Of a stretch of 64,000 nt of DNA, positions 3,542 through 26,078 are shown piece by piece. The stretch is from UHGV virus genome UHGV-1366603; one strand, 5' to 3'. Position 1 is the stretch's first letter, and each line of letters opens with the position of its first letter. Position numbers and translations under genes: made by a program. The notes under the pieces are model-generated. The model did not search any database. It was not told the DNA's origin and worked only from the letters and a program-made list of their open reading frames with translations. The DNA is from a virus.

Positions 3542-5380
3542 ATGGCTAAAGAGTTTAACGAAATTCCTAACAACGTAAATGCTGGCGCTGCTGGTGTAGA
3601 CCCGGCTCCGTCTTTTGGTGGTGTAGGTGCTGGTGCAGGCAGTGTGGATAACACCCACGCAGCAAATGCTTTCGGTGGTATGACTAAGAACATCTCCACT
3701 TTCGATAAAGCGTTCGGCTATATGTCCTACGTTTCTGCCGCTTCACATTTCACCGCGCTGATTGCGAAGATGGTTGAACGTAACCCGTACCTGAGCAAAT
3801 TCCGCTGCGGCGTTATCGACGGTGTGAATCCAGAAATGGGTTCTGCGGCATACGTTGCTGCGCCAGCAGATGAAAATGGCAGCCACTGGATGTATGGTAT
3901 CTTGTTCTTCGAACACGGTCAGTCTGTACGCTTCCGTGAAATCAACGGTAAAGAAACTTATTACACCCTGGCTTCTCTGTTTGGTCAGGCTGGTGTAATG
4001 GATTCTATCACCAAACAAATCTGCGAACAGCAGAACCTGCCGTCTGTGCAATTCATGGTAATGAACTGCATTCCAGATCTGGGTAAAACGCTGACTGAAG
4101 AGTGGGCTATCCAGCTGATGGGTCAGCTGACTCTGGGTATCTTTGGCCGTATTCCGGGCTACCTGGGTCAGCTGAAACTGACTCGCGGCGATCGCTTCGT
4201 TGCACAGGTAACTGCGGTAGACGAAGGTTCTCTGACTGACGTTAACGGCTCTGCACAACGTGCTGACCTGATGGTTCAGGTTGAACACACTCAGACCGGT
4301 AGCTTCGATACTAACCCGACGCTGATGTCCTCTGAACGTGTTCAGGGTTATCCGAGCGTTGCGGGTGTGGGTTACATCAACCTGCGTTATACTGGTCGCC
4401 GTGCACCTGAAAACGGTGTACAGGATTACAAACAGCTGCAAGCAGAAGTTGTTGTTTCTCTGATGGACTCTCAGTCTTCCGGGGCTATGGTACCAATCGA
4501 ACGTCAGCTGATTGAACTGGCTGCCTTCGCAGAAATCGCCGCTATCGGTGGCTGGCGTGAACGCTTCATGCACTCTCTCAACAAAACCGATCGTCGTTTC
4601 TCCCGCGTTATGGAATACGTAGAGTGGGGTGACAAACGTCCTGATCTGAGCAAAATCGATGGCAACCGCGAAGCTATCGAAGAGTGCCTGAACATGTTCG
4701 CCTACCCAGAAGCTGCGCTGGTTGTGAACCATCGTGCTGGTAACGGTATCGGTGGTCTCTCCACGATGTTCAGTGAAGTTTCCCAGGGTAACACTGGTAC
4801 ACTGTCTAACATCCTGACCATCCTGGACAACATGGCTCCGAAAGGTGCTACGGTGTTCACGCAGCGTTTCGCTGAAATGCTGAAAGTTAATACCATCACC
4901 TGCAACCACGTTGTTATCGCTGGCGTACCGACAGTTTCCGGTCAGTATTTCAGCAACAGCCAGAAACGTAGCTTCCAGGATCAGGACCTGGTGTCTGTAC
5001 TGAGCAAAGTTGGTGATAACCAACACGATGCCTACACTTACCTGTACGCGCAATCTTACTCACACCGTCAGTTCAACGCGACTGAACAGCGTTTGTACCT
5101 GCTGAAGCTGGCCGCTTCCCTGTTCGGCAGCAAACAGCCGGTCGTAACTGGCGAGTCCACCGATTTGGCAATCAACCCGAAATTCGCCAAAGCGCTGCTG
5201 GACTACGTGCGTGATAACTGCATCTTCCAAGTGAATGGTGTCACCGCAGTCAATAGCCTGGCTAATACGTTGTTCTTCAACAACGGCGGTGAAAACTTCA
5301 CTCTGTCTGGTAACGGCCCGAATTCCTTCGGCAGTGACTACAACATGTCATTCGCTTCCGGTAACTACAGCCCTATCTGA
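3542..5380 (+). CDS. abundant early protein; candidate chimallin (phage-nucleus shell protein) homolog, 612 aa
   Basis: Strong RBS (aaggataaataaaATG); codon usage heavily skewed to CTG/CGT/GGT/ACC; sits immediately upstream of the beta' N-terminal gene, as the shell gene does in phiKZ (gp54 then gp55, from memory); strong terminator downstream. Assignment is by synteny and size only. Confidence 0.55.
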   Translation: MAKEFNEIPNNVNAGAAGVDPAPSFGGVGAGAGSVDNTHAANAFGGMTKNISTFDKAFGYMSYVSAASHFTALIAKMVERNPYLSKFRCGVIDGVNPEMGSAAYVAAPADENGSHWMYGILFFEHGQSVRFREINGKETYYTLASLFGQAGVMDSITKQICEQQNLPSVQFMVMNCIPDLGKTLTEEWAIQLMGQLTLGIFGRIPGYLGQLKLTRGDRFVAQVTAVDEGSLTDVNGSAQRADLMVQVEHTQTGSFDTNPTLMSSERVQGYPSVAGVGYINLRYTGRRAPENGVQDYKQLQAEVVVSLMDSQSSGAMVPIERQLIELAAFAEIAAIGGWRERFMHSLNKTDRRFSRVMEYVEWGDKRPDLSKIDGNREAIEECLNMFAYPEAALVVNHRAGNGIGGLSTMFSEVSQGNTGTLSNILTILDNMAPKGATVFTQRFAEMLKVNTITCNHVVIAGVPTVSGQYFSNSQKRSFQDQDLVSVLSKVGDNQHDAYTYLYAQSYSHRQFNATEQRLYLLKLAASLFGSKQPVVTGESTDLAINPKFAKALLDYVRDNCIFQVNGVTAVNSLANTLFFNNGGENFTLSGNGPNSFGSDYNMSFASGNYSPI

Positions 5381-17123: not shown

Positions 17124-19364
17124 ATGAAAACACCAGTTGAGCTATTGAGCAGCGTCGCTGACCGTGAAGTCAATATCGCACAGGTATCAGGTGCAAGGGC
17201 ATCGATGGTAGGTAACCATATGAAGTCCTCGGTGCCGATTGACCATCCTGAACCGTCACCACACTTTACGGGCGCAGATACCAATTACCACGATTTTCTG
17301 TTTAACGATATTGTGGAAGACAGTGGGAGCATCTGTCATTACACAACTAAGGAAGGTAGACAACGTCGTGCAACGTTTACCCGTTATGGTCGTCGTGGGG
17401 ATTCCCGTGCGCTGGAACATGCGATATTCTTCCGCCGTGCAGAATGCCGTATTCCGGGCAAAACAATGATAGACGTTATCGAGATTAACTTTTATACTAA
17501 TCACGATAACGTGTTCTCTTCCGAGAAATGGGAATCACCAAAACTGCGTAGTTTGTTACGTGGTGAAACCGACCAGTTAGAAAAGGATGAAATCCTGACG
17601 ACGATGCCGTGCATGGTGGATGGTGAATTCGCAGACAGTGTAGTGCTGCCAACAGTTACCATTTCACACCCAGACATTATCGAGGATTCCTACACGATTT
17701 CCGAAGAAGCGGCACAGAAGCTTCACGGGTATGGGTTGAAGGTTATCGAGAAAACATTGCGTGAAGATGAATTCTTACTGGATACCTACGGTTATAACGA
17801 TCCCGAGGGAAATCGTGTACCGCGCTATTTTCCAGACGTGGGTGAAGCAATTCGTGACGACGGCTTAGTTATTGCTTCTCGTCGTTTCGATGACCTGTAC
17901 GCAGCGATTGATGCAACCTTAGGGGAAACCCAACACGTTTCTCCGTTCTTCGATAACTGTGATTACGTGGATGCCGATCCGATACACTATAAAGCGCGTT
18001 TGGAAAACAACCACGAACTGATGGAACGTAGCGGAACTCGCATTGTTGATATTCAGGTTTGGCGTGATGAAACGTCATGCGGTAATGGAACGAATAACAT
18101 TAACTGTACTGAAGAGAACAAACGTGAGCTTGACAAATACGCATTGGCGTTAAAGGACTACTACAATGCGATTGTTCGCTTCTATTTCTCCGTGTCGAGA
18201 GATAAAAACATTATCTGGTCTCCCAAAGCGTGTGTGTTGTTGGAGAAAGCTTTTGCATCCGAAACGTACGAAGTCTACGCAGAGTTTCGTGAAGAAATTC
18301 GCGGAGTGATTGAAGACGCAATTCGTCGCGGCGAATACGGTAAAGAGAACGTAAGTCAACAGATTATCTCTAAACTGACTTCGCCTGTTCAGCGTGGATT
18401 AAGCGATCCCATCAATACGTATACAATTCGTATCGCGGTACGTTATCCGATCCCGGTGACGGTGTCTTCTAAGATTACCGACCGTTCGGGTACGAAAGGG
18501 ATTGTGGGTCGTGTACTGCCAGTTGAACAGATGCCAATTAACGAGTTCGGCGAACGTGTCCACGTACTACGTTCAATGAACGCCGTAATTCGTCGTTCTA
18601 CTTACGCCGCGCTGTTCCACATGTATTGGTCAGCAGCATCTGAACAGCTGAAGATGCGCCTTAAACCAATGCTGGATGAAGGACGTATTGGTGAGTGTTG
18701 GGAAATCCTGATGGACTACCTCTCACGCTATAATCCAGAATGGGCGAACACGTTACAGGCTACGCATCCTACGGAGGATTTGCAGCGAGAACTCTTTAAA
18801 GAGATTTACGATTTCACTATCCGCATTTACTTACCTCACGAACTTGATGACACTCCGGTGGAAATCAGTGAACGTTTAGGTGAGTTTAAACCCCGTAAGT
18901 CTAAACTGCTTATTACCAATTACGACGGTAAACAGGAATGGACAAAAGACGAGTTTTACGTGGGTGGTGTAGAAACATTACGGCTTGATAAAACGGGACG
19001 TGAATTCTCAAGTATTTCGTCGATGTACCTGAACTACCTGGGCACGATTGATGCGTCTAACCAAGGACGTGGTTCGTATCCGGTAAACTATAAAACGCTA
19101 AAATGGGCTGGTCCTTCGGAAGAACGACTATTAGCGGGTTATGGTCCAGGTAACTACGAAGAGGTTCACGATAGGGCAAATAACCCTGCTGTACATCGTG
19201 AGATTTTAGTAGGGCTGTACCGATCTCAAACCCCTTCCAATCCGGGCGTACTGGTAGACCGGAATAAGCTCCCATTAGGAGATTCGCAGATTGACAGAAT
19301 GATGAAAAACATTCATAGCTGCGAAGGGTTTGAATTGGTGAAAATGAAAAGGGGCGAAGAATAA
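17124..19364 (+). CDS. multisubunit RNA polymerase beta subunit, C-terminal portion
   Basis: TDRSGTKGIVGRVLPVEQMPINEFGERVHVLRSMNAVIRRSTY aligns with E. coli beta [49 protein letters not shown]; aaaggag RBS. Confidence 0.7.
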   Translation: MKTPVELLSSVADREVNIAQVSGARASMVGNHMKSSVPIDHPEPSPHFTGADTNYHDFLFNDIVEDSGSICHYTTKEGRQRRATFTRYGRRGDSRALEHAIFFRRAECRIPGKTMIDVIEINFYTNHDNVFSSEKWESPKLRSLLRGETDQLEKDEILTTMPCMVDGEFADSVVLPTVTISHPDIIEDSYTISEEAAQKLHGYGLKVIEKTLREDEFLLDTYGYNDPEGNRVPRYFPDVGEAIRDDGLVIASRRFDDLYAAIDATLGETQHVSPFFDNCDYVDADPIHYKARLENNHELMERSGTRIVDIQVWRDETSCGNGTNNINCTEENKRELDKYALALKDYYNAIVRFYFSVSRDKNIIWSPKACVLLEKAFASETYEVYAEFREEIRGVIEDAIRRGEYGKENVSQQIISKLTSPVQRGLSDPINTYTIRIAVRYPIPVTVSSKITDRSGTKGIVGRVLPVEQMPINEFGERVHVLRSMNAVIRRSTYAALFHMYWSAASEQLKMRLKPMLDEGRIGECWEILMDYLSRYNPEWANTLQATHPTEDLQRELFKEIYDFTIRIYLPHELDDTPVEISERLGEFKPRKSKLLITNYDGKQEWTKDEFYVGGVETLRLDKTGREFSSISSMYLNYLGTIDASNQGRGSYPVNYKTLKWAGPSEERLLAGYGPGNYEEVHDRANNPAVHREILVGLYRSQTPSNPGVLVDRNKLPLGDSQIDRMMKNIHSCEGFELVKMKRGEE

Positions 19365-21463
19365 TGAAGGCGACTCCGGTTCACGTAAGAGACTTGTGCA
19401 AGTTGAATTCGGATCAGGTGTGGCTACTTCGGGGCGTTTACGACGTGTCCTTCGACGATGGGGTCACGTTGAGAATGTCCGGTCGACACATTAAGTTGAG
19501 CTGGCCGTATTGGGGATTAACCCAGTTTTATCCCCAGGTGCCAATCTCGTCGAACATGGCGTATAAGCATGGCGACACGGCAACTGACGATGCGCATCTG
19601 CGCTTTATGTCGTTGGCGGCTGTAGCAGCACGTAAGGCCGGAGTGGATCTGGCCGATACCCGTTACCTGTTATCGCAGCACGTTTATGCAAACGCGTTTA
19701 ACCTGACGGTGAAAAACCTGTTGTCGTATTGTGTTACCATTGACTACGATACGATGATGGAGATTTATCAGCATGAAAACTTCAAGCTAATTATTGAGTG
19801 GTCTAAACACTATCCGACGGGTTACGATGAAGAGGGTAACGATAAGGTAGAAGAAGCCTATCAACTCATTGAGAAAATCTTTAAAGATCCGAGACTCTCA
19901 AACAACCCAGTTGTCATGTCTGTGTTAGACCGCACACTGAAAATGGATCAGATTCTCCAGGCTTACATTCGTGGTAAGACTTCAGAGATTGACTCCCGTG
20001 TGTATTCTAACCAGGTATGGGAAGGTTTCTTCACCGGCCTGCATTCTGTTATCAGTCGACTGAAAGAAGCAGGTGCGACATCGCGTTCTCACCTGTATAA
20101 CACCGACAAGATTGCAGACGCAGAGTACGCATCGCGTAAGTTGCAGTTAGCGGCTAACGTGCTGATGTTCTTCGATTACGAAGACTGTGGTACACATCAC
20201 GTACACAGACACACCTTTACGAATTCGCCGTTGGAAGAAGCGAAATTCAAAGCGATGAAGGGAATGCGTTATCGCTTCGAAGGTACTGGTGGTCCGTGGT
20301 TACGATTCGAAGATGGTGAGTTTGAGAAAGTCTTGAACAAACCTATCGAGTTCCGTACCGCGATGTGTTGCAAAGGGATGTCACGACAGACTATCTGTGC
20401 AACGTGTATGGGTGACTTGATTTATAACCTGTCACCTGGCACGTCACCGGGTCACCTTGCGTCAACCGCAATTTCGGAAAAGGGTACTCAAGGTATTCTG
20501 TCGACGAAACACCTTGACTTCCTGCGTTATCTGCTGAACTTGGTTTTGTCACCAAGAATGCGTGATTATCTCACGGAGTATAAACACAACTCCGTTAAAG
20601 GGATTAGTTTACTGGAGAAGCCGCAATACGGTACTTGGGATGAATACCAACTGGTAATTTCGGATGAAGTCTATTCAGAGATTAGCCAGATTGCGTACCA
20701 TGAAGACCTGGACGATATTGATGAAACGGCACTCCCGGAAATTAATGACCTTACGTTTGTTCGTTTAGATGCAGAAGGGAATATCCTGGCAGAAGATCCG
20801 ATCGACGTTCGAATGGGCGTCTGCGGTAACTTCTCTAAGTCATTCCTTCGCTTCTTCTTGAAGAATCGTGATAAACTCGTATTTCCCAGCAAGAAAACGG
20901 TGCGTGTTCCGCTAAAAGGATGGAAACCGTCCTGGCCGATCCTAATTTATACGAATCGGTCTGAATCTATGGCGGAGTTTGTAGCAGGGTTGGAATTGAT
21001 TTTACGTTCGGTAGCATCGGACAAGTCAGATAACTTCGAACAGTTCTCGGACGAGTCAATGCGTTTGAGCAAGAAGAGTGGTAAGGTTAAACCGATTACC
21101 CTCGTTCAGATGCGTGGTGCCACGGAGAAACAATGTACTCATGCGTTGTTCTACGTGTTCAAATATATCCAACGTAAACTCAAAGGGATTCCGATGACGC
21201 ACATCGCGATTATGTTGGCAATCTCTCGTGTTGAGTCACCTACTAACCCATTCCCGGCAGTAGGGTTTGACAGTGAGGATGCTGATGCCGCAGAAGGAAA
21301 ACGCTTCGAAGATCACAATACGCTGATTGCGATGCGTTCTGCGATTCCGATGTTGCTGTTTGAGGGACAACAGAAGAACTTGGACAACGTGCGTTTCTAT
21401 ACGTCACGTAAACGTCCTGCTTCGTTGTACGACAATTCTGTCGCGGCAACGATTATTGAGTAA
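19364..21463 (+). CDS. probable RNA polymerase beta' subunit, C-terminal portion (bridge-helix-like segment)
   Basis: TAATG overlap with the beta gene; GHLASTAISEKGTQGILSTKHLD resembles the beta' bridge helix [21 protein letters not shown]. Similarity is modest. Confidence 0.5.
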   Translation: MKATPVHVRDLCKLNSDQVWLLRGVYDVSFDDGVTLRMSGRHIKLSWPYWGLTQFYPQVPISSNMAYKHGDTATDDAHLRFMSLAAVAARKAGVDLADTRYLLSQHVYANAFNLTVKNLLSYCVTIDYDTMMEIYQHENFKLIIEWSKHYPTGYDEEGNDKVEEAYQLIEKIFKDPRLSNNPVVMSVLDRTLKMDQILQAYIRGKTSEIDSRVYSNQVWEGFFTGLHSVISRLKEAGATSRSHLYNTDKIADAEYASRKLQLAANVLMFFDYEDCGTHHVHRHTFTNSPLEEAKFKAMKGMRYRFEGTGGPWLRFEDGEFEKVLNKPIEFRTAMCCKGMSRQTICATCMGDLIYNLSPGTSPGHLASTAISEKGTQGILSTKHLDFLRYLLNLVLSPRMRDYLTEYKHNSVKGISLLEKPQYGTWDEYQLVISDEVYSEISQIAYHEDLDDIDETALPEINDLTFVRLDAEGNILAEDPIDVRMGVCGNFSKSFLRFFLKNRDKLVFPSKKTVRVPLKGWKPSWPILIYTNRSESMAEFVAGLELILRSVASDKSDNFEQFSDESMRLSKKSGKVKPITLVQMRGATEKQCTHALFYVFKYIQRKLKGIPMTHIAIMLAISRVESPTNPFPAVGFDSEDADAAEGKRFEDHNTLIAMRSAIPMLLFEGQQKNLDNVRFYTSRKRPASLYDNSVAATIIE

Positions 21464-21466
21464 ACG

Positions 21467-21492
21467 AGAGGGGCCTGCGCCCCTCTTTTTTT
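21467..21492 (+). terminator. intrinsic terminator
   Basis: agaggggc-ctgc-gcccctct hairpin followed by a T7 run. Confidence 0.85.
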
Positions 21493-21505
21493 GTAAGAGG
21501 GGAGC

Positions 21506-23215
21506 ATGTACGAATTCCACATGACCTTTACCAGCATGGGGGTAAGGGTTGAAGTCCCGTGCCGACAGATAGAGTCGGCGATACTTAAGTGGGCAGAAGA
21601 ACATATGCACGCTCCTAAGATGGGCAAGCAATACGGTCGTATATTCACTGAACGTGGCGATCCGTATTACGCGCATATACCTTCTCTCCGCTCGTTTATC
21701 TTCCACAGGAACTTTTCTGAGCGTTTACGCATTATTATTAATCGTACGGCTACCGAATTTGGCATTGAGTATAAGCTTTACGAGCATTACTTAACGCAGG
21801 GAACACCTTATCGGTGTAAGTTTGAAAACTACGGCTTTAAGATGGTGGAGGACGATGAGAAATCACGTTTCTTTTACCAGAATGCTGTGGTTGAAACGGC
21901 TTGCGAACCAAATCGTTTTCAAACCATCTTTGAAATTGGTACAGGGATGGGTAAATCGAAAACGAACATGAAAGTAATGGTACGTAAGGGTGTCAGGACG
22001 CTACTGATTCACCGTCCGACGTACATCTCAAAATGGATGTTTGATTTAACTGAAGACCCAACGGGCTTACGTGAGTCGAAAGATGATGTTTTGGTTATCC
22101 AAGGCGTTCAGGCTATCTACGAAGCGTTAGAGATGGGGGAATCAGGCGAATTAGACAAACGTGGGATTAAGGTTATCATTATCTCAACGGTAACGTTGCA
22201 GCGATTCCTTAAAGAGTACATTAATACTGCCGCAACTAACCCAGTGAACATTGATGATTTCTACAACACCTTAGGCGTTGGGTTTTTGTCAATGGATGAA
22301 GTGCATGAGCATTTCCATCTGGTGTACATGGCAGGGATAATGCTCAACCCACCACCGTCTGTTGAGATGTCTGCGACGTTACAGCCGGGTGAATCAAAAG
22401 CGTTTTTAGCCGAACGGTATCGAGAGCGTTTTCCACAGGAGTCACGTATATGTATTCCGATCATTCCTGCTGTACACGTTAAGGCGTTGTATTACAGCAT
22501 TGAGAATAAACGGTTTGCGTGGTGGGCGAATAAGATGACGCCGTATAACCACAAGCTATTCGAAGGTAAGTTAATAAGTGAGAACATGCACTTATCTTAC
22601 GCGGATATGGTGTGGGACGTCATCGAGCGAACGTATCTGGCGGGTTACCAACCTGGTCAGAAAGTGTTGGTGTTGTTTGCAACCGTTGCGATGTGTGAGT
22701 TCTTTACAGAGTACGTGCGAGAGAAACTGGCACAGTCTGATAAGTTCCACGCGCTGATGGTTGCGAAATACAACGCGGGGGATTCGTATGACGACTTTAT
22801 TCAAGCGGATTTCTCGATTTCAACACCAGGGAAAGCAGGCACTGCGGTCGACAAACCGGGGTTGGTTCACATGTACATTACCACCCCTGTGGAAGACCAG
22901 CAGTTAAACCGTCAGATGGCCGGTCGTCCGCGTAAGATACTTCACAACGATTGGGGTGAACTCGATCCTGTTGTGTGGTTATTCCATTCACTCTCGATAG
23001 GGAAACACTGCAATTACTTGAATGCGCGTCAAAAGTCGCTGAGTGATTCTGTGTTGTCGTTTAAGATAGCCTCTTCACCGTATGTTGTAAGGAAAACCAA
23101 TGTTACTACCGCCGCAGCCGACCGAGCCAACAGCACCGTATGCCGGGCTGAACTTAGCAAGTTTTCTCGAAAAGGTTTTAAAGGCATACCCAGACGTCGA
23201 AAACGTCGTCGATAA
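21506..23215 (+). CDS. SF2 DExH-box helicase
   Basis: Motif I GTGMGKSKT, motif II MDEVHEH, motif III SAT, motif VI QMAGRPRK, in canonical order. The 3' end overlaps the next ORF by about 116 nt, so the true C-terminus is uncertain. Confidence 0.75.
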   Translation: MYEFHMTFTSMGVRVEVPCRQIESAILKWAEEHMHAPKMGKQYGRIFTERGDPYYAHIPSLRSFIFHRNFSERLRIIINRTATEFGIEYKLYEHYLTQGTPYRCKFENYGFKMVEDDEKSRFFYQNAVVETACEPNRFQTIFEIGTGMGKSKTNMKVMVRKGVRTLLIHRPTYISKWMFDLTEDPTGLRESKDDVLVIQGVQAIYEALEMGESGELDKRGIKVIIISTVTLQRFLKEYINTAATNPVNIDDFYNTLGVGFLSMDEVHEHFHLVYMAGIMLNPPPSVEMSATLQPGESKAFLAERYRERFPQESRICIPIIPAVHVKALYYSIENKRFAWWANKMTPYNHKLFEGKLISENMHLSYADMVWDVIERTYLAGYQPGQKVLVLFATVAMCEFFTEYVREKLAQSDKFHALMVAKYNAGDSYDDFIQADFSISTPGKAGTAVDKPGLVHMYITTPVEDQQLNRQMAGRPRKILHNDWGELDPVVWLFHSLSIGKHCNYLNARQKSLSDSVLSFKIASSPYVVRKTNVTTAAADRANSTVCRAELSKFSRKGFKGIPRRRKRRR

Positions 23216-23483
23216 ACTGTGTACCGACCCAACGATGTCCGTGGCGTTCCACTACTATATGGTAACGGAACACTTCGCCGGTATGCAGATTTTCCAACGT
23301 GGTAAATGTTATTACATTACGCGTAACTCCAGTATCCGCAACACCTCGTCTTACGAGCTTTACAGCTGGGTACTGTGGTCTGAAAACCCTGCGGGCAATA
23401 TTGATGAAAACCCGAAGGTGGCTTATCGACTATACTCTGAGAAATGGCACAGTTGGGTAGCCGTTCCTCACGATAGCAATTAA
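23100..23483 (+). CDS. hypothetical protein
   Basis: aagga RBS before ATG; terminator downstream; overlaps the helicase ORF tail. Confidence 0.6.
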   Translation: MLLPPQPTEPTAPYAGLNLASFLEKVLKAYPDVENVVDKLCTDPTMSVAFHYYMVTEHFAGMQIFQRGKCYYITRNSSIRNTSSYELYSWVLWSENPAGNIDENPKVAYRLYSEKWHSWVAVPHDSN

Positions 23484-23495
23484 AAAGTACAGAAC

Positions 23496-23528
23496 GGGTG
23501 TATATTGTGTACACCCTTTCTTTTTTTG
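23496..23528 (+). terminator. intrinsic terminator
   Basis: gggtgta...tacaccc hairpin followed by a T-rich run (tttctttttttt). Confidence 0.85.
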
Positions 23529-23544
23529 TTAAAGGAATATTAAA

Positions 23545-24117
23545 ATGTCACGTCGTAAGAAGAAACCCGCTTATAACCCACGTACTCTGGCGAAAAAAGA
23601 ACTTCGCGAAAGCGTGAAATCAGTGTATAAACTACTGGTTATCTTTGAAGAACAGATGAAGATTCTGGCGGAGCGTATCGACAAAGAACGTGAAGTCTTG
23701 GAAGCTCTGGAGGAGCCAGAATACAAAGCCTTTGCTATTAAAGCGTTGGACGAAGCCAAAGCTGCGTTCGTTGGCCTGATGGCAGAAGGGAAAGAAAAAC
23801 TGGGTGCAAAACTTATTGAGATCGATAAGGTTGCAACCAATGCAAAAACCATGCTGGAAAACAACAGCTGGGCGTCTGTGAAAGACGAGTTTAGCGTGGA
23901 AAGCATGAACGTAACCACGTTAGAGACCGAAGCCGTGTGGCTGGGTAAAGATATCCAGGGCGCTGCCATTGAAATCCTGTCGCTGTATAACGGCCGCGCT
24001 GATTTTGTAAAACGTGCTATGCACCAGGGCCACACCTTCGCAGAAGCCTACGAACTGCTTCAACAAGCTGAAGCCGCAGTAAAACAACCCGACACTGAAG
24101 TCGTTACCGAGGTATAA
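23545..24117 (+). CDS. hypothetical protein (basic N-terminus, predicted coiled coil)
   Basis: aaaggaat RBS; MSRRKKKP...; E/K/A-rich heptad-like sequence. Confidence 0.8.
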   Translation: MSRRKKKPAYNPRTLAKKELRESVKSVYKLLVIFEEQMKILAERIDKEREVLEALEEPEYKAFAIKALDEAKAAFVGLMAEGKEKLGAKLIEIDKVATNAKTMLENNSWASVKDEFSVESMNVTTLETEAVWLGKDIQGAAIEILSLYNGRADFVKRAMHQGHTFAEAYELLQQAEAAVKQPDTEVVTEV

Positions 24118-24119
24118 AA

Positions 24120-26078
24120 ATGTCTGATTCATTAGACCAACGTCCTGGCAATGGACGCCGTCGTCTACAGACGGAACCTGTACAGGTTCACATCCCTGAG
24201 CTCGACTACAGCACTATGTCAGCGGACGATGGGATTATGGCCATTAAACGTGCCAACCCACAACTGTCCTTTGCAGAAGCTGAAGAAGCGTACAAAGGAC
24301 TGAACGTGGTGAAAGAAGAACCTATTCTTCAACCCCCTACGTTTGAAGAAGAACCCCTTCCTGAATCTCTACAGACCGAACTGACAGGGCATCCCGTCAT
24401 TGCTGAAGTTGTAGAGCGTAAAGAAGTGGTCGTTGAAGAACGTAAGCCGGAACCTGTCCTGGTAGCGGAGAAAACGCGGGAAGAATATGTTCCACCGGCT
24501 CCTGAACCTCAGGCACCTGCGGCGGATCATGAACCAGAAGCGACTCCCGCAGTAAAAGAGAAAGCTTCTACCGATCGTATCAACTTCGGCGATCAGCCCG
24601 TTCACGAAGAGTTCTCGGAATTGGAAGAGGATTCAGAAGCGGCGATTATGGCCAGCTTCCGTACGCTTATCGGTCTTTGCCAGGACCCGAACCTGGTTGG
24701 AAACGATCTGAAGAAATTCTTCTCAAGTATTCCAACGAGCAAAGACGGGCGTTTGTTGTTCAAGTCCGAAGAACAGCGTGATTTGTACGAACGTCTGCGT
24801 CGTGCTCTGAACATGACACCACCGCGTTTGCAGAATAACTTACAAGCGTTTGATGTGGCGTTGTCACGTGACGACACAGCGTGGGAACAGCGTGTACAGT
24901 TGCCGGGGATGAATAAACCGGTAGGTCTGATCAGTACCCGTCTCAACCAGCAGACAGGCGCAATTGCAGCCCTGCGCCGTCGTCGTAAATCCGGTATTCC
25001 TAACTGGGTATGGCTACCTGCTACGGGTATCTTCGTCGGCTTCCGTGCACCGTTGGAGCGCGAGATTTGTGACTTCGACATTGAACTGGCGTTAGAAACC
25101 GCGAAGATTGGGATGCAGACTTACGGTCTGATGCTCTCTGCATCTTCTGGTGTGTACTTAAGCCACATGATCGAATTCGCTTTACGGTTTGTTACCGATT
25201 GCAGCTTAGACTGCGAAGGTAACGACATGAAGACCGTACTGATGGATACCATCGACATTGCAGACTACTGGTTACTGTTAATCGGCGTTATGCAGGCGAA
25301 GTTCCCAGGTGGTTTACCGTGGACACTGATTTGCGGTCACGAAGGTTGTGGTCATCAGGAAGACGTTCGTCTGAACTTGGCACGTTGCATCCGTATGGGG
25401 ACTTCTCTGTATACGGACATTCAGCGTAACCTGTGGGCACTTCAACGCGGTAAAGACGACGCGACTATTACCCGTGCTGACCAGCGTAAGTTTGTTGAAG
25501 AACACATCAAAGACCCATCTGCGATTTTCGAACAAGACGGGATCATCGTTAAGTTCGGTCGTTCTACTTTGGGTAAATTCTTCGACAACACCGAACGTTG
25601 GATTGAAGAAACTAACGCGGCCACAACCTCTGCTTTGGCAGAGAAGGGCACAGAACGTGAGCGTGAAGACCACTTACGCTTAACCGCTGAGGCACGTCGT
25701 CTAACCCGTTATGCGCACATGGTTGAATCTATCACCGTTATGGAAGAAATCTACGACGGTGAAGAATCCCACGAAGAACCTATCGTAGAGAAAGATTACG
25801 ATAAGATCGTCCAGATGCTGGAAGAACTGTCGTCCGATCGTAAATACGTGGCTAACTTCGAAGGCGCTATTGCGACGTACAACGACCGTAGCCGCCTGGC
25901 GGTGTTCGGGTATATGGGTCAACGTTGCCCAGCATGTGGTAAAGCCGATGAAGGTGAGAAAGAAGGTGTGTATCGTGGTATCGTAACGATTTCCCCGGAC
26001 CGCGTTTTTTTCGAGCTATCTCGAGTGGTGTTCGAGATTCAGCGGTTTATGAGGGATCAATTCGGCGTTACTGGCTAG
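24120..26078 (+). CDS. hypothetical protein (acidic Pro/Glu-rich N-terminal region, Cys clusters)
   Basis: 652-aa ORF; PE-rich low-complexity N-terminus; GHEGCGH and CPACG motifs. Confidence 0.8.
   Translation: MSDSLDQRPGNGRRRLQTEPVQVHIPELDYSTMSADDGIMAIKRANPQLSFAEAEEAYKGLNVVKEEPILQPPTFEEEPLPESLQTELTGHPVIAEVVERKEVVVEERKPEPVLVAEKTREEYVPPAPEPQAPAADHEPEATPAVKEKASTDRINFGDQPVHEEFSELEEDSEAAIMASFRTLIGLCQDPNLVGNDLKKFFSSIPTSKDGRLLFKSEEQRDLYERLRRALNMTPPRLQNNLQAFDVALSRDDTAWEQRVQLPGMNKPVGLISTRLNQQTGAIAALRRRRKSGIPNWVWLPATGIFVGFRAPLEREICDFDIELALETAKIGMQTYGLMLSASSGVYLSHMIEFALRFVTDCSLDCEGNDMKTVLMDTIDIADYWLLLIGVMQAKFPGGLPWTLICGHEGCGHQEDVRLNLARCIRMGTSLYTDIQRNLWALQRGKDDATITRADQRKFVEEHIKDPSAIFEQDGIIVKFGRSTLGKFFDNTERWIEETNAATTSALAEKGTEREREDHLRLTAEARRLTRYAHMVESITVMEEIYDGEESHEEPIVEKDYDKIVQMLEELSSDRKYVANFEGAIATYNDRSRLAVFGYMGQRCPACGKADEGEKEGVYRGIVTISPDRVFFELSRVVFEIQRFMRDQFGVTG

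Follow-up and report, generated by a model that had tools for sequence, protein, structure and literature searches.

In the virus genome UHGV-1366603, of which a stretch of 64,000 nucleotides (nt) was analyzed (the window), the gene for a putative superfamily 2 (SF2) helicase runs on past the end of its folded core, through an arginine-rich tail and across the start of the next gene, here called D. What is this shared DNA? A sequence-only reading of the locus had left three answers side by side, namely, a genuine overlap, a sequencing or frameshift artifact, or a regulated C-terminal extension. Comparison with related phages shows that the overlap is genuine and that the helicase tail was overprinted on the older frame of D. 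The reading that we favor for the whole, with a probability of roughly 0.6, is that of a maintained dual-coding overlap, whose tail is kept for its basic residues and likely serves as a tether to nucleic acid.

The helicase gene (21506..23215, + strand) encodes 569 amino acids, and D (23100..23483, + strand) encodes 127 amino acids in the +1 frame relative to it. The two share 23100..23215 (+ strand), a dual-coding stretch of 116 nt that includes the TAA stop codon of the helicase at 23213-23215. The overlap of about 116 nt reported from the sequence alone thus agrees with the open reading frame (ORF) coordinates, but the interval 21506-23483 assigned there to the helicase covers both genes. 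In the AlphaFold model of the helicase, the final strand of the folded core lies at residues 518-528, and the core sequence ends in SPYVVRK531. What follows is a C-terminal tail of residues 532-569 (23099..23212, + strand), all but the first base of which (23099) lies over the first 38 codons of D. The tail holds 13 lysines and arginines versus 2 aspartates and glutamates, for a net charge of about +11, and the protein closes with KGFKGIPRRRKRRR, the final residues being GIPRRRKRRR, where the RRRKRRR run is coded by 23192-23212. Residues 544-569, with a predicted local distance difference test (pLDDT) score below 50, are predicted to be disordered; residues 532-543 score about 67. The Shine-Dalgarno sequence of D, AAGGA (23089..23093, + strand), is spelled within the helicase codons V529-R530-K531 and is separated from the ATG by a 6-nt spacer.

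This architecture recurs throughout the relatives of the window. We recovered the junctions of 14 nonredundant close relatives (helicase 51-92% identical) from Seoulvirus, Erskinevirus, Machinavirus, Wellingtonvirus, and Derbicusvirus as well as from IMG/VR contigs. In all 14, the overlap measures 113 or 116 nt, the helicase ends in an arginine run, and D starts with M[LI]xPP directly after the helicase's SPYV[VI]RK. The Shine-Dalgarno region reads TAAGGAAA in 13 of the 14, with AGG invariant in every one. The basic tail crossing a start codon with a good ribosome-binding site, already remarked upon in the sequence-only reading, is kept in these relatives as well. Three deeper metagenomic lineages (L032, L033, and L034; 42-46% identity) share the same +1 overlap of 113-116 nt; their tails differ in sequence from those of the close relatives but are still basic. 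Across all lineages, the net charge of the tails ranges from +9 to +18, and acidic residues are nearly absent. The helicase frame is open across the first 37-38 codons of D in 17/17 tailed lineages, whereas the same frame holds 3-4 stops within 38 codons in four of the five tail-less lineages, which places the overlap beyond chance. Inside it, the tail averages 0.48 and D 0.67 in amino acid identity. The same overlap was found in every SPN3US-like genome examined, with both frames open and conserved across divergent relatives, which confirms it as genuine. Nothing was found to suggest that the extension is regulated; the ORF constitutively ends in the tail.

The natural C terminus of the helicase, as defined by homologue alignment, depends on the distance of the homologue. 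Close relatives carry the tail, and the extension is to that extent real, but distant homologues end near residue 530, which marks the tail as a derived addition rather than as an unreal one. In these distant relatives, the helicase ends at the equivalent of residue ~531, with D adjoining. For example, the 530-amino-acid helicase of Vibrio phage pVp-JHP1101 ends in SKFIIK, with D beginning 8 nt further on, and that of lineage L028 has 539 amino acids, with D beginning 1 nt past its stop. Tail-less helicases were also found in phiKZ (gp75), RAY (gp250), RTH11, and the proteins P0115, P0118, and P0119. The N-terminal motif of D, LxxFLxxVLKAYPxVED, is kept in the outgroups L011 and L028, where the helicase stops before D. 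Moreover, divergence at D codon positions 1/2/3 is 0.229/0.229/0.444 inside the overlap and 0.235/0.197/0.551 outside it; read in the helicase frame, it is the first codon position of the overlap that varies most, unlike in a primary frame. Given both the conservation of D's N terminus in tail-less outgroups and this D-frame pattern within the overlap, D is the older of the two frames, with the helicase tail overprinted on it. Since D is already in the +1 frame in L011 and L028, the overlap would need no more than the loss of the helicase stop. The tail probably arose when that stop was lost in a lineage with D in the +1 frame and has since been kept by selection.

Does the tail itself matter, then, or is it simply tolerated? 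The main rival to our reading accepts the overlap as real but takes the tail to be a functionless read-through, whose basicity is a by-product of D's G-V-E-D-V-A codons. We consider this unlikely, even though the D frame dominates the evolution of the overlap, the tail is predicted to be disordered, and the chance of the helicase frame staying open given the D sequence is 17-80%. Synonymous variation, measured as the fraction differing among codon pairs with the same D amino acid, is 0.625 over D codons 2-13, 0.426 over codons 14-29, and 0.323 over codons 30-37, compared with a baseline of 0.558 outside the overlap; that is, it is lowered exactly over the distal tail, which a functionless read-through does not explain (column permutation, P = 0.0003 versus D columns and P = 0.007 versus helicase columns). 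Only 11 of 504 contiguous stretches of the helicase are as low in synonymous variation. According to the two models, the early, unconstrained part of the tail coincides with the coil of D, and the constrained basic part with the first two helices of D. Likewise, none of the 72 synonymous sites at which a T would create a stop carries a T, compared with 10.3 expected.

The amino acid content of the tail argues in the same direction. Under a null model that keeps the D protein fixed and samples its synonymous codons according to local usage, 1.8-2.5 arginines plus lysines (R/K) are expected among the final eight residues of the tail, whereas 5-7 are observed in 14/14 close genomes (P <2e-4 to 0.045), and the enrichment is also significant in two of the three deeper lineages, L032 and L034. 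No R/K enrichment was seen under the same codon usage null in the tail-less controls L011, L028, and L031. Among tail-less lineages, only L030, which is nested in the tailed clade, has an excess, in the form of a cryptic RRRDR in the closed frame (P = 0.03), and this looks like the relic of a lost tail. In this lineage (4096-4210 of a Logan ERR1301552 contig), the helicase stops where it meets D in an ATGA, and a single additional base ahead of the ATG places D in the +2 frame, with the old tail frame, ending in RRRDR and a stop, behind three stops. In L032, the RRRKRR end is coded over a different D segment (CADGSVD), so the polyarginine run is not merely a shadow of the VEDV motif; its origin as a pure by-product of that motif was rejected on this ground and on the lack of enrichment in the three controls. 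Finally, L035 (P0112, 37% identity) has a 65-amino-acid tail with a net charge of +18 that lies wholly upstream of D, without any overlap, and is an independent, nonoverlapping version of the basic tail. This tail, at 4080-4279 of a Logan SRR10074419 contig, is rich in asparagine, lysine, and arginine, and D begins 48 nt past its stop. Taken together, the sequence comparisons suggest, with a moderate signal, that the tail is under selection for basic residues.

Several points weigh against a maintained tail and have to be set against these results. Constraint is of moderate strength, and because the genomes share ancestry, their individual P values are not independent, nor does the test on synonymous variation fully allow for phylogeny; in L033, the R/K enrichment is not significant (P = 0.10 to 0.14), and no constraint was seen over the first ~12 residues of the tail. 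The tailed clade also takes in two lineages without a tail, P0100/L030 and P0101/L031 (in a neighbor-joining tree without support values), meaning that the tail is dispensable at least sometimes, as a functionless read-through would be. Some of the arginine richness does come free from D's G-initial codons (G-V-E-D-V-A), and the unused frame of the outgroup L011 reads SRRRHR followed by a stop, which also fits a by-product, though it is not significant against L011's own codon usage null. Furthermore, L035 is known from one metagenomic contig, neither peptides nor ribosome profiles were found for the tail or the overlap region, and the role that we propose for the tail below is drawn by analogy.

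Alternatively, the overlap might be chiefly regulatory, with ribosomes on the helicase frame passing over the ribosome-binding site of D and thereby coupling or throttling its translation, which would fix the ratio of helicase to D and leave the tail peptide secondary. This idea is not exclusive with a maintained tail, and it draws on the position of D's Shine-Dalgarno sequence and ATG inside helicase codons, on the apparent cotranscription of the pair between terminators, and on the strikingly constant overlap length of 113 or 116 nt. As the chief explanation, however, it seems to us improbable, more so than a functionless read-through. The RNA at 23040-23160, around the ribosome-binding site of D, folds no more stably than shuffled sequences (z = +1.06), so that no structure masks the site; 116 nt is far beyond the need of termination-reinitiation coupling; and both the R/K enrichment and the nonoverlapping basic tail of L035 are left unexplained. 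A fixed complex is not indicated either, given that in SPN3US, gp37, the orthologue of D, is found in virion preparations and gp36, the orthologue of the helicase, is not.

Far less probable still is that there is no overlap at all, i.e., that D starts at Met46 (23235), past the helicase stop. Public annotations do favor this start, in that D is called as 82 amino acids from Met46 in P0124 and P0125 (>100 contigs) and shorter still elsewhere. But Met46 is not conserved, position 46 being L in Stratton and I in SPN3US, whereas M1 is invariant and its Shine-Dalgarno sequence conserved; residues 1-45 evolve as D-frame coding sequence and are kept in outgroups without the overlap; and the AlphaFold model of D places helices at residues 19-29 and 33-42 with pLDDT values of ~86-88. 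Conservation thus supports the 127-amino-acid form, starting at the ATG at 23100, as the right one. In SPN3US, mass spectrometry of purified virions detected gp37 with 6 and 4 spectra against a 14.6-kDa (127-amino-acid) model (Thomas 2016, PMC5105663, Table S4), which makes D a real protein; the predicted N-terminal peptides of SPN3US gp37 are MLTPPRPAEPLPPYIGMTLASFLENILK. Tailless particles lacked gp37, and gp36 went undetected in virions (Thomas 2016, PMC5105663). D belongs to phrog_9835 (expect value [E] = 1.7e-60 over residues 8-125 of 127) and has no Pfam match. Its model (mean pLDDT, 75.6) comprises a proline-rich coil at residues 1-18, the two helices named above, a third at 46-56, and a small sheet, and it found no significant fold match in the PDB (best E, 0.75). 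Only 10 homologues of D turned up in a large protein database, a consequence of how seldom gene calls cover its full length. Besides the 82-amino-acid calls, we encountered lengths of 37 amino acids in the phiEaH2 RefSeq record, 64 in CR5, and 88 in L032, and D is not called at all in SPAsTU, L033, and L034.

The least probable explanation invokes a frameshift, either as an error of sequencing or assembly or as a programmed +1 shift of the ribosome that would yield a helicase-D fusion. It can appeal to the +1 frame of D and to a CTT-AGC-A in the overlap that superficially resembles Ty1-type CUU-AGG-C slip sites, but it fails on the identical architecture in >17 independently sequenced lineages, on the separate helicase and D genes of the outgroups with their own stop and start, on D's own conserved Shine-Dalgarno sequence and ATG, and on the candidate site itself, the only one found, which lacks a stable RNA structure and is not conserved (Caitlin, CR5, and others differ).

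What kind of protein carries the tail? By the fold neighbors of its model, it is a divergent SF2 enzyme, a translocase or helicase probably akin to XPB and UvsW, as suggested by its PHROG match, by Pfam matches in its relatives, and by its closest solved structures, which are XPB-, UvsW-, and SNF2-type ATPases. PHROG 16 ("DNA helicase") matches residues 7-521 (E = 6e-51). The window protein itself has no Pfam match at an E of ≤0.1, so its Pfam membership is indirect, by way of homologues: among 24 family members, ResIII (PF04851) is matched in 8 (best E, 3.9e-7) and DEAD (PF00270) in 7. A sequence search of the PDB gave no match, and a profile search gave a marginal one to XPB II over motif I (E = 0.25). 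The AlphaFold model (24 homologues) reaches a pLDDT of 87.3 and a predicted template modeling score of 0.77, and Foldseek returned 495 PDB matches to it at an E of ≤0.001. The 50 matches listed are nearly all SF2 ATPases, with XPB, UvsW, SNF2, RecQ/WRN, and DEAD-box proteins in the lead; the top ones, XPB II, TFIIH XPB, and T4 UvsW, have E values of ~3e-13 to 6e-13 at ~12% identity, and SNF2 and RecQ score nearly as high. The model and its SF2 fold matches indicate two tandem RecA-like domains.

The helicase motifs, whose invariance was judged in an alignment of 24 homologues, are all in place on the + strand. They comprise motif I (Walker A), TGMGKS, at residues 146-151 (21941..21958), with G147, G149, and K150 invariant; motif II, DEVH, at residues 264-267 (22295..22306), with D264, E265, and H267 invariant; motif III, SAT, at residues 289-291 (22370..22378), identified by sequence and alignment; motif V, STPGKAGTAVD, at residues 439-449; and motif VI, QMAGRPRK, at residues 470-477 (22913..22936), with Q470, R474, and R476 invariant. 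The description of an intact SF2 DExH helicase given from the sequence alone therefore holds up against the PHROG, Pfam, and structural evidence, as does its list of motifs I, II, III, and VI, except that the family pattern of motif VI is QxxGRxR, one residue shorter than the QxxGRxxR given there.

Homology and position after the RNA polymerase beta/beta' genes place the helicase in the orthologous group of phiKZ gp75 and SPN3US gp36, and tblastn found the helicase in 289 phage records, including PHIKZ075 of phiKZ (E = 6e-23). SPN3US gp36 has been paired with phiKZ ORF075 before (Thomas 2016, Table S1, PMC5105663). The gp75 of SPN3US is a different protein, the major capsid protein. Public labels for the orthologues range over "terminase large subunit," "transcript termination protein," "UvsW-like helicase," "RAD2/SF2 helicase," and "hypothetical protein," of which the terminase label is very likely wrong. 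About 30 of 119 helicase homologues are 796-942 amino acids long, and nearly all of these have intein or homing endonuclease Pfam matches (PF14528 LAGLIDADG_3 and PF05203/PF05204 Hom_end), for example, those of Erwinia phage Kwan and some Salmonella assemblies; P0046, P0062, P0068, and P0072 were compared as well. The window helicase has no intein.

The surroundings of the two genes identify the window as an SPN3US-like jumbo phage. Its best nucleotide matches in this region (21000-24200) are Erwinia phages Stratton and phiEaH2 and the SPN3US-group Salmonella phages, at 72-74% identity, and no nucleotide match of ≥80% to the window was found in the phage collection; it appears to represent an undescribed SPN3US-like relative. 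The nearest relative of its helicase is 92% identical and comes from Salmonella enterica assemblies (P0001, 293 member sequences), and the host is probably Salmonella. D is 99% identical in the IMG/VR contigs UViG_3300045988_078609 and _095954. Directly upstream of the helicase lie split genes for an RNA polymerase beta-like protein (17124-19364, Pfam Rpb2_6) and a beta'-like protein (19364-21463), which overlap by 1 nt at 19364 and make up the non-virion RNA polymerase of jumbo phages, with equivalents in SPN3US gp34/gp35 and phiKZ gp71-74. The same block precedes gp75 in phiKZ and gp36 in SPN3US (Thomas 2016, Table S1, PMC5105663). A terminator-like GC hairpin after the beta'-like gene (21466..21487, + strand; a 9-pair stem with 6 GC pairs, followed by TTTTT) forms the upstream edge of the helicase-D unit, and a terminator-like hairpin with a T-run after D (23496..23516, + strand) forms its downstream edge, from which we infer that helicase and D are cotranscribed as one unit. 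The next two genes, at 23545-24117 (phrog_8045) and 24120-26078 (phrog_8054), keep their order in every relative. For the first of them, the homologue in SPN3US is gp38, which was likewise detected, with few spectra, in preparations of virions (Thomas 2016, Table S4, PMC5105663).

How might the overlap work? The helicase has no stop at the end of its core, K531, and ribosomes would read 38 further codons, across the Shine-Dalgarno sequence and the first 38 codons of D, and so append a disordered extension of about +11 net charge, with RRRKRRR at its end. D would be initiated independently at the ATG at 23100 from its own accessible Shine-Dalgarno sequence, the one spelled by the helicase's V-R-K codons. 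By analogy with other helicases, the most likely role of the tail is that of a nonspecific tether to DNA or RNA for an XPB/UvsW-like translocase linked to the non-virion RNA polymerase genes. It is tempting to go further and speculate that a functional, disordered, polybasic module for binding nucleic acid was born de novo when the helicase read through into an older gene, was kept by selection through the SPN3US-like radiation, with L035 arriving at the same solution in nonoverlapping DNA, and could adapt the helicase to the phage RNA polymerase or to the genome inside the phage nucleus; we offer this broader scenario tentatively, as a possibility with the odds somewhat against it.

Some GenBank and RefSeq entries already show the overlap (for example, Stratton gp51/gp52 and SPN3US gp36/gp37), but no paper discussing the SPN3US gp36/gp37 overlap or tail was found. 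Long same-strand overprinted overlaps and basic helicase tails are both known phenomena; that one piece of DNA encodes two proteins is here a fairly ordinary finding, and it leaves the current understanding of phage biology unchanged. Its value lies first in annotation. Gene callers avoid long overlaps, and D is for this reason often cut to 82 amino acids or fewer or missed altogether, a miscall that can now be corrected across the phage group, as can the labeling of the helicase as "hypothetical" or even "terminase." Beyond this, the locus is a clean, datable case of an overprinted protein segment, provided with natural controls in its tail-less sisters, the L030 relic, and the nonoverlapping tail of L035, and it points to a disordered tail of charge +11 on a conserved helicase beside the jumbo-phage non-virion RNA polymerase genes.

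Among known systems, the closest to the window are SPN3US gp36/gp37 and the corresponding pairs in the Erwinia phages phiEaH2, Stratton, Asesino, Caitlin, Huxley, Wellington, and Derbicus and in Cronobacter phage CR5. They share the gene order (beta, beta', helicase, small protein), the +1 frame, and an overlap of 113 or 116 nt, with helicases 51-75% and D proteins 61-72% identical to those of the window. Their tails end in RRRRRR, whereas that of the window ends in RRRKRRR and has one extra codon, and several relatives have an intein in the helicase, unlike the window. Further away, phiKZ gp75 (E = 6e-23), RAY gp250, and RTH11 of the Chimalliviridae have the same SF2 core at ~24-31% identity, and their genes likewise come immediately behind that for the beta' subunit of the non-virion RNA polymerase (gp74 in phiKZ). 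As a fluorescent fusion, phiKZ gp75 is cytosolic early in infection and at 40 min is recruited to the phage nucleus, either inside it or beside it (bioRxiv 10.1101/2024.03.24.586471). However, phiKZ gp75 (537 amino acids), RAY gp250 (515 amino acids), and the RTH11 helicase end right after the last core strand, without a basic tail, and no D homologue, hence no overlap, is found behind them.

At the level of structure, the best matches to the predicted core are XPB (archaeal XPB and TFIIH XPB/Ssl2) and T4 UvsW, again at ~12% identity, with template modeling scores against the helicase model of 0.27-0.5, low owing to differences in domain orientation. In T4, too, a small ORF of its own, UvsW.1, comes after uvsW (PMC7824862). 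D cannot be equated with UvsW.1 or with Bax1, however, because no protein of related fold could be detected for it. The DEAD-box proteins Mss116p and CYT-19 carry a short, unstructured, arginine- and lysine-rich C-terminal tail that tethers their core nonspecifically to nucleic acid. Like the window helicase, they combine a basic tail with a core of two RecA domains, but they belong to another SF2 subfamily, and the tail of the window is coded inside another gene. In this last respect, the locus resembles the overlapping genes of phiX174 and Rz/Rz1 of lambda, which are overprinted, dual-coding phage genes; there, too, a younger frame lies on the same strand as an older one, its product is disordered and of biased composition, and the synonymous variation of the older frame is lowered. 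The window differs from these systems in that only a 38-codon C-terminal extension, rather than a whole gene, is overprinted and in that a sister lineage, L035, carries a tail of this kind in nonoverlapping DNA.

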